NCBI GenBank assembly: GCA_903902515.1
Contig: CAIUVD010000069.1
Location: 11,475 to 75,474 of the forward strand
DNA length: 64,000 nucleotides
From: an uncultured Planctomycetota bacterium
GTDB taxonomy: Bacteria > Planctomycetota > UBA11346
Direction: 5' to 3'
The first letter of the stretch is position 1, and every line of letters begins with the position of its first letter. This document shows positions 15,421 to 63,981 of the stretch, piece by piece. A program made the position numbers and the translations under genes. The notes under the pieces were generated by a model. It did not search any database and was not told where the DNA came from. It was given only the letters and a program-made list of their open reading frames with translations.

Positions 15421-16038
15421 CTACGGCAAGACCCGGAACCCCGCCCAGCGGTAGGGGTCCGCCGCCGTGATCACCCCAGCGACCCGTTCGCGGGTGGCGA
15501 CGGTGAATGCCAGACAGGTGGCATGGTCGGCGGTGGCATCGCGCCAGCGGGCTAACCAGTCGAGGGCCGCCTGTTGGTCATCGGCACTCGGGATGACCAC
15601 CGTGAGGTGCTTGGCCAAGGCTAGACGACGGCCCCGTTCGGCGGCAAAGGCTGGATCGGTCCGGCGGGCGAGGTCCGTCAGGGCCGTAGCGACCTCGGTC
15701 GGGGTGGTGATCAGGGCTGGGCGGCGCAGGACCACGGCGGCCCACGCCCGCTGCAGACGGGGATGATCCGGATGCCCACGCCAATGGCGGGCCACCAGGG
15801 CATCGGCGGCCACGAACAGGGTTCCCGACGGCAACGGCGGCGGCTCGGGCACGAGGGTAGCCGGGCCACCATGGATGGCGGTGTCTGCCAGCCAGGGATC
15901 ATCCGTTGGATCTTCGCCCGCCACCACGGCCGCCAACTGGTCGCGGATCAATTCTGCCAGGGATTTTCCCTGGGCCTTGGCATGCCGGGCGGCGCGTTCG
16001 CGGAGGTCCGGAGGCAGGAGGATGGTGGTGCGGTCCAT
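15421..16038 (-). CDS. Single-chain RHH (VapB-like) antitoxin fused to a PIN (VapC-like) nuclease domain
   Basis: N-terminus MDRTTILLPPDLRERAARHAKAQGKSLAELIRDQL is a ribbon-helix-helix CopG/VapB signature. C-terminus ...DATADHATCLAFTVATRERVAGVITAADPYRWAGF resembles the PIN C-terminal conserved block. The ATG shares one base with the upstream Rieske gene's stop (TGATG). Confidence 0.55.
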   Translation of the reverse strand: MDRTTILLPPDLRERAARHAKAQGKSLAELIRDQLAAVVAGEDPTDDPWLADTAIHGGPATLVPEPPPLPSGTLFVAADALVARHWRGHPDHPRLQRAWAAVVLRRPALITTPTEVATALTDLARRTDPAFAAERGRRLALAKHLTVVIPSADDQQAALDWLARWRDATADHATCLAFTVATRERVAGVITAADPYRWAGFRVLP

Positions 16039-16307
16039 CACATGGGGTCCGGGGTCCGGGGTCCGGGGTCCGGGGTCGCGGGAAGTCGGGTCAGCCCTGG
16101 TTGTCCAGGGCCGGCGAGGCACTCGCCGGTGCGCGGGTCGAATACCGCACCGTGCAGGGAGCAGACCAGGTGGCCATCGAACAAACACTGGCCGTCACCG
16201 TAATCCAGGCCGATGCCGACGTGGGGGCAGGAGTTCAGCCAGCGGGCGATCTCGACCCCGTTCTCGCGGATGACGATGGCCTGGCGGCCGTCGGGCAGCG
16301 GGGCCAT
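16038..16307 (-). CDS. Small Rieske [2Fe-2S] ferredoxin-like protein (89 aa)
   Basis: CPHVGIGL...(17 residues)...CSLHGAVFDPRTGEC gives the CxH...CxxH Rieske ligand pattern. The C-terminal 13 residues (ATPDPGPRTPDPM) are encoded by the (GGGGTCC)n repeat. Confidence 0.55.
   Translation of the reverse strand: MAPLPDGRQAIVIRENGVEIARWLNSCPHVGIGLDYGDGQCLFDGHLVCSLHGAVFDPRTGECLAGPGQPGLTRLPATPDPGPRTPDPM
16044..16078. repeat. (GGGGTCC)x5 heptamer minisatellite, G-quadruplex-competent
   Basis: Direct reading GGGGTCCGGGGTCCGGGGTCCGGGGTCCGGGGTCG. Overlaps the 3' end of the Rieske ORF and abuts the PIN gene start. Confidence 0.9.
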
Positions 16308-16323
16308 GTCCTGGACCAACCCT

Positions 16324-16363
16324 TTCGGCTGGTGGACTTCCGGACTTCCGGACTTCCGGACTT
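16324..16363. repeat. (GGACTTCC)x4 octamer tandem repeat ending GGACCCTG
   Basis: GGACTTCCGGACTTCCGGACTTCCGGACTTCCGGACCCTG lies between the nadA stop (16376) and the Rieske start (16307). Its terminal GGACCCTGCCTCA matches the GGACCCTGACTCA terminus of the 28856-28955 array. Confidence 0.85.
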
Positions 16364-16375
16364 CCGGACCCTGCC

Positions 16376-17350
16376 TCATCCGACCGCCAGCATCCGTTCG
16401 ATCGGCAACCGGGCCCGCTCGATGAGGGTGGCGTCGAGGGTAATCTCGGGCCGACCCTCGGCCAGGCAGCGCCACAGCTTTTCGAGGGTGTTGAGGCGCA
16501 TGTGGGGGCAGGTGTTGCAGGACGTGCAGGAGCCGTCCTTGCTGCCCTTCACCGATGCGGGCGCTTCCAGGAACCGGGCCTTGGGCTGGGCCCGGCGCAT
16601 CTGGTGGATGATGCCGGGCTCGGTGACCACCAGATAGGTGCCATCGGCGGCGCCCTTCTTCACGGCTTCCAACAGGGCTTTGGTGCTGCCGACCACGTCC
16701 CCCAGGTCGCGCACGGTGGCGGGGCATTCGGGGTGGACGAGGGTGATGCAGCCGGGGTTGGCCTGCTTGAGGTCGATGATGGCCTGGGCCGAGAACAGCT
16801 CGTGGATTTCGCAGGAGCCTTCCCACAGCACCAGGTCGCGCCCGGTCTTCTGGCGCACGTAGTCGCCCAGGAAGCGGTCCGGGGCGAAAATGATGGGCTG
16901 GTCCTTCGGGATGCTCTCTACCACGGCCACGGCGTTGGAGGAGGTCACGCAGTAATCGGACAGGGCCTTCACCGCCGCCGAGGAATTGACGTAGGTCACG
17001 ACCACGTGCCCCGGGTGGGCGGCGACGAAGGCGGCGAACTCCTTGGCCGGGGCGGAATCCGCCAGGCTGCACCCGGCGGCCAGGTCCGGCAGCAACACCT
17101 GCCGCTGGGGCGAGAGGATCTTCGCGGTCTCTGCCATGAAGTGGACGCCGCAGAAAACGATGATGTCGGCCTTGGAATTGGCCGCCTCGCGGGCCAGTTG
17201 CAGACTATCGCCGATGAAGTCGGCCTGGTCCTGAATCTCGTCGGCCTGGTAGTAGTGGGCCAGGATGACGGCGTTCTTGGCCTTCTTGAGGCGCTGGATC
17301 TCGGCCGCCAGGTCGACGGGCGGGGTCAGGCGGGACAGGGGCAGGATCAT
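16376..17350 (-). CDS. nadA: Quinolinate synthase A
   Basis: Full-length match to the NadA fold: ...VILAHYYQADEIQDQADFIGDSL..., three repeated subdomains, and the CPHM/Cys cluster region (SCTSCNTCPHMR). Confidence 0.95.
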   Translation of the reverse strand: MILPLSRLTPPVDLAAEIQRLKKAKNAVILAHYYQADEIQDQADFIGDSLQLAREAANSKADIIVFCGVHFMAETAKILSPQRQVLLPDLAAGCSLADSAPAKEFAAFVAAHPGHVVVTYVNSSAAVKALSDYCVTSSNAVAVVESIPKDQPIIFAPDRFLGDYVRQKTGRDLVLWEGSCEIHELFSAQAIIDLKQANPGCITLVHPECPATVRDLGDVVGSTKALLEAVKKGAADGTYLVVTEPGIIHQMRRAQPKARFLEAPASVKGSKDGSCTSCNTCPHMRLNTLEKLWRCLAEGRPEITLDATLIERARLPIERMLAVG

Positions 17351-26893: not shown

Positions 26894-28756
26894 ATGGCAG
26901 GCTTCCTCGGCGATGATCAGGTGCGGCGCGTCAAGGACGCCATCGACATCGTGCAGTTGATGGGCGAGTACGCGGCCCTGCGCAAATCCGGCAAAACCTT
27001 CGCCTGCTGCTGCCCGTTCCATCAGGAGCGGTCCCCCAGTTGCTACGTCTACCCGGATACCCAGTCCTACTACTGCTTCGGCTGCCAGGCCCACGGTGAC
27101 GCCATCAGCCTGATCCGGGCCAAGGAGAACGTCAGTTTTACGGACGCCCTGGAGTTGCTGGCCCGCCGGGCCGGCATCACCCTGGTCTACGAGAACAGCC
27201 GGGGCAACGACCGGGGCGAGCGCGATACGTTGATCGCCGCCTGCAACTTCGCGACCCAGTTCTACGAGAAATGCCTGTGGGAGGACGACGGTGCCGCTGC
27301 CGCCCGGGCCTACCTGCTGGAACGCCGCCAACTGGCCAAAACCACCTGTGAACGGTTCCGCCTCGGCTGGTCCCCGGGCCGAGGGGCCCTGGTGGATGCG
27401 GCCAAGCGCAAGGGCCTCGACCCCCAGATTCTGGCTCGCCTGGATCTCGCGGTCGAGCGGGATGGCCGCCTGGTGGACCGCTTCTATGAACGGGTGATGT
27501 TCCCGATTTGCGACCGTTTTGGGAATCCCCTGGCCTTCAGTGCGCGCCTGCTGCCGGAGGCGGAAAAAGCCGCCAAGGAAGCCGGTCGTGGCGTCGGCAA
27601 ATACGTCAACAACACCGACACGCCGCTTTACCACAAGGGCAGCACGGTGTTCAACCTCCACCGTGCCCGGACCGTCGCCCGGGATGCCGGTCGATTAATC
27701 GTCATGGAGGGCCCGACGGATGTCATGGCCGCCGACCAGGCGGGCATCGGCGAATGCGTGGCCGTCCTTGGCACCGCCCTGACCCCCGAGCATGCCAAGC
27801 AGCTCGGTGCCCTGGTCGGCGACAAGGGGCGCCTGTTGCTGCTCCTCGACGGCGACCGGGCTGGTCAGACCAATGCCCTCAAAGGCATCCGCACCTGCCT
27901 CGCGGTGGGCGTCCCCGTGCGGGTGGCGATCCTGCCGGATGAGCTCGATCCGTCGGAACTCCTGGCCGAGGGCCCCGGCGGCGTCGCCTCGCCTGAGGCC
28001 AAGGCGACCTTTGAAAAAGTCCTGGCCAGCGCCCGGGCCGACCTCGACCACCTCCTGCGGGCCACGGCCCCCCGGCCCTACGATCTGGCCCGGGACGATC
28101 TGGTGCGGGCGGTGGACGAAATCCTGGCGGTGGTTCGGCCCATGCCCGACGCCGAACAGCGGACCCTGGCCCTGGGCGAGGTCGCCGAGTGGTTCAACCT
28201 CCCCAAGGACCGCCTGGCCAAACGCTTGGCGGAGGGGGCCCCAACGGCCACCGCCGCCGCCTCGCCCGAAGCCGCCGCCCCGCCCATCGAACCTCCGACC
28301 ACCGCCGGCGAAGTGGTCCTCCATCTGCTCGTTGCCCACCCGTCCCTGCGGGCCGTAGCCGCCGACGACCTGGGCCTAGAGCCCAGCCATCTGCCGACTC
28401 CGTGGTCCGACCTCCTCGGTGCCCTCCTGACCCTGCCGGACGCCGACCCCGACGCCCTGTGCGCTGCGGAGGGCGTCGCCACCCACGAGGGCCTCCAGGC
28501 CGCCGTCCGCCGCTGGGCCGCGACGCCCATCGACGCCCGCCTACGGGGCAACACCGCCCCCCGGCCCGAAGGCGACGACCTCCGCCCGGAACTGGAAAGC
28601 CGCATCCGCCAACTGCGCCGGGCGGCCATCGAGCACGACATCCACCGCCTGGGTGCCGAGATCAAGGACGCCGAACGGGCTCGGGATTTTGCGCGCATCA
28701 AGGCGCTGATGGTCGAACGTTCAGAGTACCAGCGGCAGGCGCGGGATTTGGCGTGA
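26894..28756 (+). CDS. dnaG: DNA primase
   Basis: CHC2 zinc finger (CCCPFHQERSPSCYV...CFGCQAHGD). TOPRIM domain (VMEGPTDVMA...LLLDGDRAGQ). Confidence 0.95.
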   Translation: MAGFLGDDQVRRVKDAIDIVQLMGEYAALRKSGKTFACCCPFHQERSPSCYVYPDTQSYYCFGCQAHGDAISLIRAKENVSFTDALELLARRAGITLVYENSRGNDRGERDTLIAACNFATQFYEKCLWEDDGAAAARAYLLERRQLAKTTCERFRLGWSPGRGALVDAAKRKGLDPQILARLDLAVERDGRLVDRFYERVMFPICDRFGNPLAFSARLLPEAEKAAKEAGRGVGKYVNNTDTPLYHKGSTVFNLHRARTVARDAGRLIVMEGPTDVMAADQAGIGECVAVLGTALTPEHAKQLGALVGDKGRLLLLLDGDRAGQTNALKGIRTCLAVGVPVRVAILPDELDPSELLAEGPGGVASPEAKATFEKVLASARADLDHLLRATAPRPYDLARDDLVRAVDEILAVVRPMPDAEQRTLALGEVAEWFNLPKDRLAKRLAEGAPTATAAASPEAAAPPIEPPTTAGEVVLHLLVAHPSLRAVAADDLGLEPSHLPTPWSDLLGALLTLPDADPDALCAAEGVATHEGLQAAVRRWAATPIDARLRGNTAPRPEGDDLRPELESRIRQLRRAAIEHDIHRLGAEIKDAERARDFARIKALMVERSEYQRQARDLA

Positions 28757-28855
28757 GGGGCTTTCGACCTTATTGAAGTCCGGGGTCCGTGGTCAAAGAC
28801 AGGATCACTGCGGTGTTTCCAACGCCGGGGCTATTCCCACGCCGGGGGCCTCGCG

Positions 28856-28955
28856 GGACCCCGGACCCCGGACCCCGGACCCCGGACCTGAAGTGACCCC
28901 GGACCCCGGACCCCGGACCCCGGACCTGAAGTGACCCCGGACCCCGGACCCTGAC
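28856..28955. repeat. Higher-order minisatellite: [(CCCCGGA)x4-CC-TGAAGTGA]x2 + truncated third copy; G-rich (G4-competent) on the minus strand
   Basis: Two identical 38-bp super-units plus CCCCGGACCCCGGACCCTGAC. Ends 1 nt before the ATPase stop codon at 28956-28958. Confidence 0.9.
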
Positions 28956-30140
28956 TCACCGATCCGAACTCGGCATCACCCGCCGCATGAACTGATCGAA
29001 CAACGGCACGGTGAACGCCAGGTCGCCGTGGGCCGGGCTGTAAATCATGCCCTTGGCGATCAGCTTGGCCCGCACGGGACCGACGCTGTTGACCTTCACC
29101 CCCATACGATCGGCGATGACCCCCACCCGCTGAGGTTCCGGCCCCAAGTCAGCCATGGCCCGCAGGAATCGTTTTTCGCTGGGGGTCAGGCGATCAAAGC
29201 GGACGCGGAAGAAGTTCTGGTCGAGGCGCTGTACGGCCACCGGAGTGGCCGCACGGACGACCTCGACCGTGATGTTCGGGGTCGGCGCACTGTTCCAGGC
29301 CTGGTACCCCCATTCCTGGACAAAATAGGGGTAGCCGGTGGTGAAGCGGAAGATCTCCGCCAGGGCTTCGGTGGTGAACGCGGCGTTGGCCGCCCGGGCG
29401 GGATCCTGAAGGGCCCGGGCGGAGTCGGACTGGGACAGGGCCCCGATGTCCGGGAAGGCGAACAGCCGTTCGGCGTAGGATTTCGATTCGCCGGCCAGGC
29501 CCGGCAGGATCGGCAAACCGGCCCCGATCAGCACCAGCGGAAGTTGCCGCTGCTGCATCTTGTGCATGGCCATGATGAGGGCGCCGAGCTCCTTGGCGGT
29601 GAAATACTGGACCTCGTCGATCAGCAGGGCGACGGCGACGCCCCGATCCTGGGCGGCCTCGGCCACCGCCACGAACAGGTGGGGGAGGTCGATTTCGATG
29701 TCGCCACTGTCGGCGGACCCGGTTTCAGGATCCACGTCAAGGGACAGGGACAGGTCCTGGAATTCGACCTTGATGGTGCCAATGAAACTCCGCAGGACCG
29801 ACAGGGCCCGGCGGACCCGATGCCCGGTCCCCGCGAGGCGACTGAGGTCGTAGAGCAGGGACCGGAGGTGGGGGGCCAGGAACGGTCCCAGGGGTTTGCC
29901 TTCGTGGGCTTCAATCAGGATGGCGCGGTAGTCAGCGGACTCTGCCAGACGATGGATCTCATTGAGCAGCACCGTCTTGCCGGTTCCCCGCAGGCCGGTC
30001 AGCAAGAGGCTTTTCTCGGCCTTTCCGGCCTTGATGCGGTGCAGCAGCACATGGGCCTGTTCCAGCACCGGCTGGCGACCGACGAGTTCGGGTGGCGGGG
30101 CGCCGGCACCGGGGGAAAACGGGTTAGCGATGGCATCCAT
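28956..30140 (-). CDS. Orphan AAA+ ATPase (Arch_ATPase/DUF234-like) with C-terminal winged-helix-like region
   Basis: Walker A LLTGLRGTGKTVLL. Walker B ALLIDEVQ. ~150-aa C-terminal domain with helix-rich DNA-binding character. Confidence 0.75.
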   Translation of the reverse strand: MDAIANPFSPGAGAPPPELVGRQPVLEQAHVLLHRIKAGKAEKSLLLTGLRGTGKTVLLNEIHRLAESADYRAILIEAHEGKPLGPFLAPHLRSLLYDLSRLAGTGHRVRRALSVLRSFIGTIKVEFQDLSLSLDVDPETGSADSGDIEIDLPHLFVAVAEAAQDRGVAVALLIDEVQYFTAKELGALIMAMHKMQQRQLPLVLIGAGLPILPGLAGESKSYAERLFAFPDIGALSQSDSARALQDPARAANAAFTTEALAEIFRFTTGYPYFVQEWGYQAWNSAPTPNITVEVVRAATPVAVQRLDQNFFRVRFDRLTPSEKRFLRAMADLGPEPQRVGVIADRMGVKVNSVGPVRAKLIAKGMIYSPAHGDLAFTVPLFDQFMRRVMPSSDR

Positions 30141-30145
30141 AGGGA

Positions 30146-30179
30146 TTGCTACCTGATACTACCTCATTTCAGGTAGCAA
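30146..30179. promoter_or_regulatory. Perfect 11-bp inverted repeat TTGCTACCTGA-N12-TCAGGTAGCAA
   Basis: Seen directly. Lies 6 nt upstream of the ATPase ATG (30140, minus) and ~70 nt upstream of the DUF309 gene (plus). Confidence 0.7.
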
Positions 30180-30247
30180 CGTGTAGCATTGGTTAGGAGT
30201 CCATCGGGCGGAGGGGGTCCGTGGCCTCTCCATCCCCATTCCTGAGC

Positions 30248-63146: not shown

Positions 63147-63981
63147 GGTCTTCCCAGCAGGGCTTCTTGGCCGGGGGGTTTCGCAGCAAATAGGCGGGAT
63201 GGAAGGTCGGTAGCAGGGGGATGCCCCGCCAGTCCAGCATCTTGCCCCGCTGGGCGGTGATGCCGAGTTTGTCGTCGCCGGTCAGGGCCCGCAGGGGCGT
63301 GTTGCCGAGGGCCACGATGATCTTCGGTCGGATGGCCAGCAACTGCCGGTTCAGGTAGGGCAGGCAGGCGGCGACCTCGCCGGATTCCGGGGTGCGGTTG
63401 CCGGGCGGTCGGCATTTGACGACATTGGCGATGTACACGTCCTCGCGCCGGAACCCCATGGCCTGGATCATGGCCGTCAGCAGTTCCCCTGCCGCTCCAA
63501 CAAACGGCCGACCCTGGACGTCTTCATCGGCCCCCGGACCTTCGCCCACGAACACCAGTTCAGCGGCGGGATTGCCCTCGCCGGGCACGGTGTTGGTGCG
63601 GGTTTGGCACAGCCCGCAGGCCCGGCAGGCGGCGACCTGGGCGGCGATGGAGGTTAGTTCGGAGGCGGGTAATGGGGAGGGGGGAGGGTCGCCCCCGGTC
63701 CGGGGTCCGGGGTCCGGGGTCCGGGGTCTGGCGGGAACGATGATCGGTGGTGGTTCCGGCGTCGGTTCTGGGCTGTGGCTTCGCCCACGAGAGGTCGGGA
63801 GCACCGCTTGAGGATCCAGGAACTCCAGGCCAAAATCCTGGTCCAGGAGCAACTGTTCCCGCAAATCGGCCAACACCGATTCCCGATTATCGGGACCCCG
63901 GACCCCGGACCCCGGACCCCGGACATCATTACCCACCCTGCACCTCCATCCGCCCGCGAGCCGCCCGCCACAGCAGCACAT
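63094..63981 (-). CDS. Family-4 uracil-DNA glycosylase with N-terminal extension containing two (GGGGTCC)n-encoded tracts
   Basis: GEGPGADEDVQGRPFVGAAG and HPAYLLRNP motifs, plus the Cys cluster (CRACGLC...C), are UDG family 4. The N-terminal ~110 aa include VRGPGSGVRGPD and PRTPDPGPRTGG, which are encoded by the repeats. The true start is at or beyond 63981. Confidence 0.75.
   Translation of the reverse strand: MCCCGGRLAGGWRCRVGNDVRGPGSGVRGPDNRESVLADLREQLLLDQDFGLEFLDPQAVLPTSRGRSHSPEPTPEPPPIIVPARPRTPDPGPRTGGDPPPSPLPASELTSIAAQVAACRACGLCQTRTNTVPGEGNPAAELVFVGEGPGADEDVQGRPFVGAAGELLTAMIQAMGFRREDVYIANVVKCRPPGNRTPESGEVAACLPYLNRQLLAIRPKIIVALGNTPLRALTGDDKLGITAQRGKMLDWRGIPLLPTFHPAYLLRNPPAKKPCWEDLKAVVKFLGRELPKRGG
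63691..63722. repeat. (GGGGTCC)x4 heptamer repeat
   Basis: CCGGTCCGGGGTCCGGGGTCCGGGGTCCGGGGTCTGG. Lies inside the UDG N-terminal extension. Confidence 0.9.
63895..63925. repeat. (CCCCGGA)x4 heptamer repeat (opposite orientation)
   Basis: GGGACCCCGGACCCCGGACCCCGGACCCCGGACATC. Inverted relative to the 63691 copy 170 nt away. Confidence 0.9.

Follow-up and report, generated by a model that had tools for sequence, protein, structure and literature searches.

What kind of element is the compound repeat that lies directly behind an ATPase gene in the DNA of an uncultured Planctomycetota bacterium, and why does it end almost exactly like a second array behind the nadA gene? The stretch analysed, hereafter the window, comprises 64,000 nucleotides (GTDB lineage Bacteria; Planctomycetota; UBA11346; assembly GCA_903902515.1, contig CAIUVD010000069.1, positions 11,475 to 75,474; GC content ~68%). 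The gene in question encodes an AAA_16/AAA_22 ATP-binding protein of 394 aa (here the ATPase; 28956-30140, minus strand, assigned by open reading frame (ORF) and domain match), and the repeat is located in its 3' untranslated region (UTR). An earlier note on this DNA had taken the shared ending as a sign of a common insertion or processing mechanism, for example a miniature element aimed at stop codons or giving rise to them. We found that the focal repeat is probably a further case of the quadruplex-prone heptamer repeats known from gene ends in other bacteria, and that the shared ending is the first, imperfect repeat unit next to the stop codon.

Anatomy of the focal array and its place among heptamer repeats

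The focal array occupies positions 28856-28951 (minus strand) and reads (GGGGTCC)n on the sense strand of the ATPase gene, in 2.5 blocks of 38 nt. Tandem Repeats Finder (TRF) described 28857-28951 as a repeat of period 38 with 2.5 copies, 100% matches and a score of 190, and the same stretch at period 7 as 12.9 copies of GGACCCC with 78% matches, that is, as a degenerate heptamer array. Both TRF and the sequence itself bear out the earlier reading of a 38-bp higher-order repeat of heptamers in 2.5 copies. Followed from its 5' end on the plus strand, the array consists of (GGACCCC)4 at 28856-28883, GGACC-TGAAGT-GACCCC, (GGACCCC)3 at 28901-28921, a second GGACC-TGAAGT-GACCCC, GGACCCC and GGACCC, and is followed by TGAC and TCA (28956-28958). 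As had been noted before, this TCA is the stop codon of the ATPase, whose 394-aa ORF ends there on the minus strand as TGA, 4 nt from the array. The linker TGAAGTGA between the heptamer runs is located at 28889-28896, with a second copy at 28927-28934 (plus strand). On the minus strand each 38-nt block is made up of four G4-tracts and the linker TCACTTCAGG, and canonical G-quadruplex (G4) motifs were found at 28859-28883 and 28897-28921. A short inverted copy of the block, TTGAAG-TCCGGGG-TCCGTGG-TCA, is located at 28773-28795 (plus strand), with matches of 17-22 nt that are 86-94% complementary; it mirrors the 38-nt block including the linker-like ends, and together with the main array it forms a convergent G-to-C inverted pair. 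The sequence GGACCCCGGACCCC, a heptamer dimer, occurs 18 times in the window with at most one mismatch, against 0.54 occurrences expected.

Two familiar kinds of repeat were set aside on this anatomy. The focal array resembles a CRISPR array in its direct repeats with short intervening sequences, but the linkers are 8-10 nt long and identical, the repeats themselves are microsatellites, the neighbouring genes are dnaG, the ATPase gene and a DUF309 gene, and neither a cas gene nearby nor a leader was found, in agreement with the judgement of the earlier note. A phase-variable contingency simple sequence repeat (SSR) does not fit either, since the array sits after a stop codon between convergent genes and not in a coding frame or a promoter spacer.

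The window contains five arrays in total, each with 4-5 perfectly spaced G4-tracts. Besides the focal array, these are an octamer array, (GGAAGTCC)4.5, at 16334-16369 between the nadA stop and the Rieske core (minus strand; (GGACTTCC)4.5 on the plus strand; found by TRF and in the alignment with L129 and L133, two contigs from relatives); a (GGGGTCC)5.4 array at 16044-16082 (plus strand, TRF), with the antisense strand G-rich, at the 3' end of the Rieske ORF; a (GGGGTCC)4.6 array at 63697-63728 (plus strand, TRF) ahead of the core of a uracil-DNA glycosylase (UDG) gene; and a (GGGGTCC)4.6 array at 63893-63924 (minus strand, TRF), which stands on the sense strand directly after a TAATGA stop. 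The octamer array had been placed at 16324-16363 with four copies; the array is real, but its coordinates and copy number are those given here. The two last arrays are the arms of an inverted pair (63698-63728 and 63894-63924, 31 nt each, 165 nt apart, with perfect complementarity), and the region 63697-63924 folds with -146 kcal/mol (z = -6.6). The tract runs in the window comprise four runs of four, one of five and one of two, with none of three. Three of the five arrays begin 1-10 nt past a stop codon, so the adjacency to stops that had been pointed out before is non-random. In all five, the G-rich strand is either the sense strand directly after a stop (n=3) or the antisense strand just upstream of an ORF (n=2); the array at 16044-16082, for example, stops 5 nt short of the ATG (16036-16038) of the next minus-strand gene, which encodes an RHH-domain protein.

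These traits agree with a class of G-rich, quadruplex-forming heptamer SSRs described by Rehm et al. in 2015, with the unit GGGAATC in Xanthomonas and GGGGA(C/T)T in Nostoc (PMC4692102). Members of this class show a strong four-unit preference and variable copy number, are mostly intergenic and lack an association with insertion sequences; with the G-rich strand as sense they stand no more than 50 bp past a stop, some of them overlapping it, and with that strand as antisense no more than 50 bp ahead of an ORF; convergent inverted pairs number 70-75 cases per Xanthomonas genome (PMC4692102). The window arrays share the 7-nt unit with a run of at least three G (GGGGTCC), the minimum of four G-tracts in succession, with four preferred (exactly four per 38-bp block, in a small sample), the placement rule (5 of 5), the variable copy number, and the convergent inverted pairs (28773-28795 with 28856-28951, the UDG pair, and a further case in L133). 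They differ in the unit GGGGTCC itself, in belonging to a 68% GC Planctomycetota genome and, at the focal site, in the perfect 38-bp higher-order period; in addition, some arrays here lie within called ORF termini, orthologous arrays lose their G4 potential, and the quadruplex is a predicted one here.

The heptamer is not confined to this genome. A search of one genome per species for (GGACCCC)4, which by design demanded at least four units, returned more than 109 loci in Acidobacteriota, Actinomycetota, Planctomycetota, Phycisphaerae and others, with many loci per genome in Thermoanaerobaculaceae. On crude ORF calls, the strand and position rule gave 47 versus 30 (p = 0.07) for 129 arrays (124 from other genomes and the five of the window), and arrays within 50 nt after stops numbered 27 versus 14 in the other genomes. 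Higher-order repeats of (GGACCCC)4 runs with fixed linkers were also seen at L019, L039 and L097, in metagenome-assembled genomes (MAGs) of Thermoanaerobaculaceae and Acidobacteriota, with periods of ~86, 51 and 66 bp, and in some genomes different heptamers (GGACCTC, GGACCAC and GGACCCC) stand side by side.

An over-representation of heptamer SSRs and G-patterns in bacteria has been noticed statistically, and Huang and Mrazek found G-patterns strongly over-represented in the planctomycete Isosphaera pallida (PMC4060949). We did not find this exact repeat in the bacterial literature, and our literature searches returned no positional or population analysis of such repeats for Planctomycetota. 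The heptanucleotide STRR (short tandemly repeated repetitive) sequences of the cyanobacterium Calothrix PCC 7601 are likewise dispersed tandem heptamers in the non-coding DNA of particular lineages, with other sequences. The TAACTGA direct repeats of marine Beggiatoaceae form many intergenic sets of tandem heptamers with a proposed post-transcriptional role (PMC4679880). In outline they resemble the present arrays in being tandem and intergenic, and differ in being AT-rich, in having no G4 potential and in belonging to another lineage.

Strain variation and the shared ending

Seventeen metagenome contigs encode an identical ATPase, and those that reach the array were used for alignment; several end inside the array or within ~115 nt after it. 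The results showed that L002 carries exactly one 38-bp block fewer, giving 1.5 versus 2.5 blocks in the population. The junction between array and ATPase reads TGAGTCAGGG in the window, L001, L002 and L006, TGAGTCCGGG in L003 and L004, and TGAGTCGTAGGCC in L005. The linkers of L003 and L004 read CACGTCAGGG and CACGTCAGGT on the minus strand, and the linker is thus not invariant. The repeat region varies while the ATPase coding sequence is almost fixed.

At nadA (16376-17350, minus strand; PF02445, E = 8e-116), the octamer array is present in all contigs with an identical NadA. Four contigs from syntenic relatives (L129, L133, L135 and L136) have ~88% DNA identity to the window. In L129 and L133, the stretch between nadA and the Rieske gene holds a heptamer array of GGGGTCC with the same proximal junction GGATGAGGCAGGGT(C/T)C, and L135 and L136 have an unrelated 137-nt spacer in place of the array. 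Because these syntenic relatives have the heptamer array with the same junction, the octamer GGAAGTCC is, judged by this alignment, a derived unit variant of GGGGTCC that has spread through the array. The focal and nadA arrays are therefore related, as the earlier note had proposed. The array at the C-terminal end of the Rieske gene reads (GGACCCC)5 in the window, L129 and L133, and (GGACCTC)4 in L135, with the same change in every unit. Read from the sequences, this concerted change points to turnover by slippage. It also shows that arrays of about 4-5 units are kept in place and can nonetheless lose the potential to form a G4.

The resemblance of the two endings is real. The 15-nt endings CCGGACCCTGACTCA and CCGGACCCTGCCTCA are identical at 14 of 15 positions and are fused to TCA stops in both genes, as had been observed; the nadA array ends GGACCCTGCCTCA, in which TCA (16376-16378) is the nadA stop, and within the window GGACCCTGNCTCA has two exact matches only, at the ATPase and nadA arrays. 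This 'signature' is composed of one imperfect repeat unit, the TGA stop and three further shared bases. Its non-repeat part at the focal array is the junction at 28952-28958 (minus strand, TGA-GTCA), and after removal of the repeat unit (GGGTCC) and TGA the two loci share G-N-C-A, that is, three of four bases in the same phase. On the sense strand the stop junctions read TGA-GTCAGG-GTCC at the ATPase, TGA-GGCAGG-GTCC at nadA, and TAATGA-T-GTCC at the gene that ends at 63926, where the signature is absent from the third stop-adjacent array (63893-63924). By our own rough, post hoc calculation, the probability of such junction identity arising by chance across three stop-adjacent arrays is 0.01-0.03.

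We searched for the ending beyond the window. TGNCTCA stands at the array end in none of the 124 (GGACCCC)n arrays from other genomes. Among the 120 metagenome matches to CCGGACCCTGNCTCA listed, one adjoins a tandem array, of hexamers, and 119 adjoin none; essentially all of these are chance matches inside unrelated sequence. Neither a target-site duplication nor a shared internal sequence was found at the focal site, and blastn detected no core common to the inverted arrays, whose cores are unique to each locus. The earlier note had named a lack of further copies with this ending as grounds for refutation; none turned up among the 124 arrays, and by that standard the claim of a signature is refuted. 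These results indicate that the signature is the first, imperfect GGGGTCC unit (AGGGTCC) next to the TGA stop, and that at nadA it was inherited by descent. A miniature inverted-repeat or non-autonomous insertion element is accordingly not supported by the termini, which vary between strains and are absent from other arrays, nor by any common internal sequence.

Neighbouring genes, hairpin modules and rival explanations

The gene dnaG (DNA primase; 26894-28756, plus strand, ORF and domain match) is convergent with the ATPase gene, and the intergenic gap between them (28757-28955, 199 bp) contains the focal array. Several prepilin-type N_methyl proteins are encoded nearby. Homologs of the ATPase are abundant, with more than 8000 at 70-74% identity across Planctomycetota, Acidobacteriota, Chloroflexota and Proteobacteria. 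The closest (L125, L127 and L128; 79-88% identity) stand in unrelated gene neighbourhoods, and one is flanked by rve_3 and IstB transposase genes. The homologs share a conserved, more AT-rich upstream region of ~75 nt, GTTGCTACCT..AGGTAGTA..GTAGTAAT, with a hairpin at window positions 30146-30179. The ATPase looks like a horizontally moving single-gene cassette. No array follows the stop codon of its homologs in other settings; not being syntenic, these only show the gene travelling without the array. The named relatives of DnaG are all labelled Planctomycetota, and in the closest (89% identity) the DUF309 gene follows dnaG with a 4-nt overlap and no ATPase gene between them, according to the gene calls. 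The 11-mer GGGGTCCGTGG has two exact copies in the window, both on the plus strand, at 28782-28792 and at 30214-30224, the latter at the called start of the DUF309 gene; they bracket the ATPase gene and the array and may be an insertion joint.

Discrete modules built from such arrays were seen in the relatives. At positions 3945-4072 of L133, a 128-nt module occupies the exact gap between the genes for an RHH-domain protein and a SpoU methylase and consists, in order, of C, (GTCCGAG)4.6, a unique 52-nt core, (GACCTCG)4.4 and TTTGCCTTATGA; the whole folds into a single hairpin (-89 kcal/mol, z = -9.3), the arms of which are still complementary although the unit variant has changed. In L129, the same two genes overlap as ATGA (2808-2811) and the module is missing, and in L133 ATGA is duplicated at both module ends. 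This filled and empty pair shows that a stop/start junction can gain or lose arrays together, as an entire hairpin module. Across genomes, an enrichment of ATGA beside arrays was not significant (6 observed versus 3.8 expected). L133 also contains, at 1828-1990, a 163-nt insertion relative to L129 with GCGACCTGGAAGGTCGC palindromes in direct and inverted copies, similar to repetitive extragenic palindromic (REP) sequences, which lengthens the called IGPS ORF from 265 to 323 aa. In the Planctomycetota MAGs UWPOB_PLANC5 and VAR_61_metabat_110 (L028, two sites in L089, L108 and L080), heptamer or octamer arrays have a conserved terminal CGGAC-AGGGGCAAT, after which a G often completes an ATG; the units in L080 are GGACTTCC, as in the nadA array of the window. 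The conserved flank may represent either the end of an element specific to the lineage or a region of translation start.

The small Rieske [2Fe-2S] gene (16038-16379) is wedged between nadA and the RHH-domain gene, with the stop/start overlaps ATGA and TGATG. Its ORF is called in all contigs from the ATG that overlaps the nadA stop (ATGA) and runs through both arrays; the called N- and C-terminal tails are both repeat-encoded and differ between relatives (MRQGPEVRKSGSPEV versus MRQGPGSEVRGPGSG), and distant Rieske homologs have an N-terminal tail of 12-14 aa. The inverted pair at 63697-63924 has a family-4-like UDG gene on one side and, on the other, a minus-strand gene with its TAATGA stop at 63926. 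Should GTG 63876 be the start of the UDG gene, the second array of the pair would be translated as PRTPDPGPRT in a Pro-rich linker; a look-up of the UDG-like protein with two different starts returned nothing on record.

Against the heptamer-class reading, a serious alternative is a neutral microsatellite with no effect on expression, placed where it is tolerated, that is, outside coding regions or at their disordered ends. We regard this as possible, though improbable. It would account for the drift of the unit and the loss of G4 potential at orthologous sites, for the unrelated spacer at nadA in L135 and L136, for the variable copy number and for the spread of such arrays through unrelated high-GC phyla. 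It accounts poorly for arrays of 4-5 units retained between the same genes in lineages whose DNA has diverged by ~12%, for five window arrays all oriented alike relative to genes, for the lack of short arrays of 2-3 units in the window, and for the arms in L133 that stay complementary despite the changed unit. Less likely is the insertion of a ~1.43-kb segment (array, ATPase gene and conserved upstream region) between dnaG and the DUF309 gene, in which the array was carried in or formed at the joint and GGGGTCCGTGG represents a duplicated target or microhomology. The gene order in the closest DnaG relative, the bracketing pair of 11-mers, the homologs at 70-88% identity across phyla in unrelated contexts and their shared upstream region all speak for it. 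However, the homologs elsewhere have no array after the stop, a simple insertion with the 11-mers as its bounds does not agree with the gene-call sizes in the DnaG relative, the 11-mer belongs to the heptamer-like sequence that is common in the genome, and the traits of the array family also occur at loci unconnected with the ATPase. Quite unlikely, too, is a broader idea in which heptamer arrays form the stems of separate hairpins, each a module of G-array, core and C-array that comes or goes as a whole exactly at stop/start junctions, with the focal array as an over-grown arm, possibly tied to the capture of the GGGGTCCGTGG-bracketed mobile ATPase cassette. The L133 module, the conserved AGGGGCAAT ends in other MAGs and the seemingly mobile ATPase lend it some weight. 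If the idea is true, it would mean a new intergenic insertion or fold-back process in Planctomycetota and an element that serves transcript ends in both directions.

The proposal that set out from the shared ending, a miniature mobile or processed element with the terminus GGACCCTGNCTCA that inserts at stops or creates them, with the two arrays as independent insertions, is very unlikely. The near-identical endings, the three arrays close behind stops, the L133 module between duplicated ATGA copies and the conserved AGGGGCAAT ends in other Planctomycetota MAGs would all suit it. But the signature varies in near-identical strains and is absent from the third stop-adjacent array, from the 124 arrays elsewhere and from the array contexts of 119 of the 120 listed matches. 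The cores of inverted arrays are locus-specific, the focal array has no target-site duplication, ATGA is not enriched next to arrays, and the nadA junction was inherited by descent along with its heptamer array; the data in hand show no recurrent array terminus. Hardly credible at all is a translated repeat, in which a GTG overlapping the ATPase stop (GTGA) opens a 42-codon ORF (28831-28959, MSQGPGSGV...) through the array, in parallel to the Rieske ORF that starts from ATGA (MRQGP...). In its favour one may count that gene callers start the Rieske ORF at the overlapping ATG in every contig, that MRQG and the repeat-encoded tail are kept in relatives and that distant Rieske homologs also have an N-terminal tail. 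However, the 42-aa ORF consists of repeat sequence throughout and has no homolog, the loss of one block (L002) or the junction change in L005 would shift or destroy it, a 7-nt period cannot hold the reading frame when the copy number changes, and the similarity of the peptides follows automatically from the shared DNA.

Returning to the known class of heptamer repeats at gene ends, several points weigh against this reading as well. The G4 potential is not kept at orthologous arrays, whose units GGAAGTCC and GAGGTCC have GG runs only, and an ordinary RNA fold of the focal region is only modestly better than its shuffles (z = -2.3 and -1.6). Across the other genomes, arrays follow the rule of strand and position only as a trend, and the four-unit preference derives from five arrays in 64 kb. 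The copy-number differences come from metagenome assemblies and could partly be assembly artefacts. The gain or loss of a whole module between L133 and L129 means that slippage alone is insufficient for the first appearance of an array at a site. Finally, the junctions of the two loci agree in phase at 9 of the 10 nt that follow TGA, more than one would readily expect from chance.

Predicted folding, possible function and meaning

With G4 energies included (ViennaRNA), one four-layer G4 per block is predicted, and the ATPase 3' UTR folds with -129.6 instead of -110.4 kcal/mol. The predicted structure contains two G4s enclosed by a helix, in which the stop-proximal units pair with the inverted copy at 28773-28795; this pairing belongs to the minimum free energy structure. 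A scan of 28500-29200 for promoters and terminators found nothing, including no site resembling an intrinsic terminator, and no structured RNA family of Rfam 15 matched at gathering score anywhere in the window.

From the copy-number variation and the concerted unit change, we infer that the arrays arise and turn over by slipped-strand mispairing. The 38-bp period would go back to a further duplication, this time of a whole block of four G-tracts with its degenerate 10-nt linker; slippage out of register, or unequal recombination between runs of heptamers, could have caused it. Once transcribed with the ATPase gene, each block may fold into a four-layer RNA G-quadruplex, and the stop-proximal units may pair with the short inverted copy ~60-170 nt downstream, which would give a bulky 3'-end structure between two convergent genes that have no canonical terminator. 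REP and the related BIME (bacterial interspersed mosaic element) sequences of enterobacteria are structured extragenic sequences at 3' ends and within operons that can block exonucleases and pause or terminate transcription; the REP unit is an imperfect palindrome of 35-40 nt, mobilised by REP-associated tyrosine transposases (RAYT). The present arrays resemble them in a possible mode of action, as inverted array pairs here fold into long hairpins, and differ in their unit, a non-palindromic heptamer. By this analogy the focal array could be a barrier or stabiliser at the 3' end, or else a tolerated by-product of no function. Since no intrinsic terminator and no Rfam family were found in the region, a role as 3'-end barrier or stabiliser is plausible, going by the modelled fold. 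A strict G4 function is doubtful because there are orthologous arrays with no G4 potential; the RNA-form units GGAAGUCC and GAGGUCC are natural non-G4 variants of GGGGUCC.

In practical terms, such arrays break metagenome assemblies and distort gene calls through repeat-encoded ORF 'tails'. For the biology of the group, these results suggest that quadruplex-prone heptamer repeats of the type found in Xanthomonas and Nostoc, placed by the same rules, are also present in a Planctomycetota lineage. To this the window adds a clean case of 38-bp higher-order organisation in four-G-tract blocks, copy-number variation at the population level and the concerted evolution of orthologous arrays. In the last of these, the array and its size of some four units are retained even where the sequence can no longer form a G4, which is relevant to the question of whether these repeats act through quadruplexes at all.

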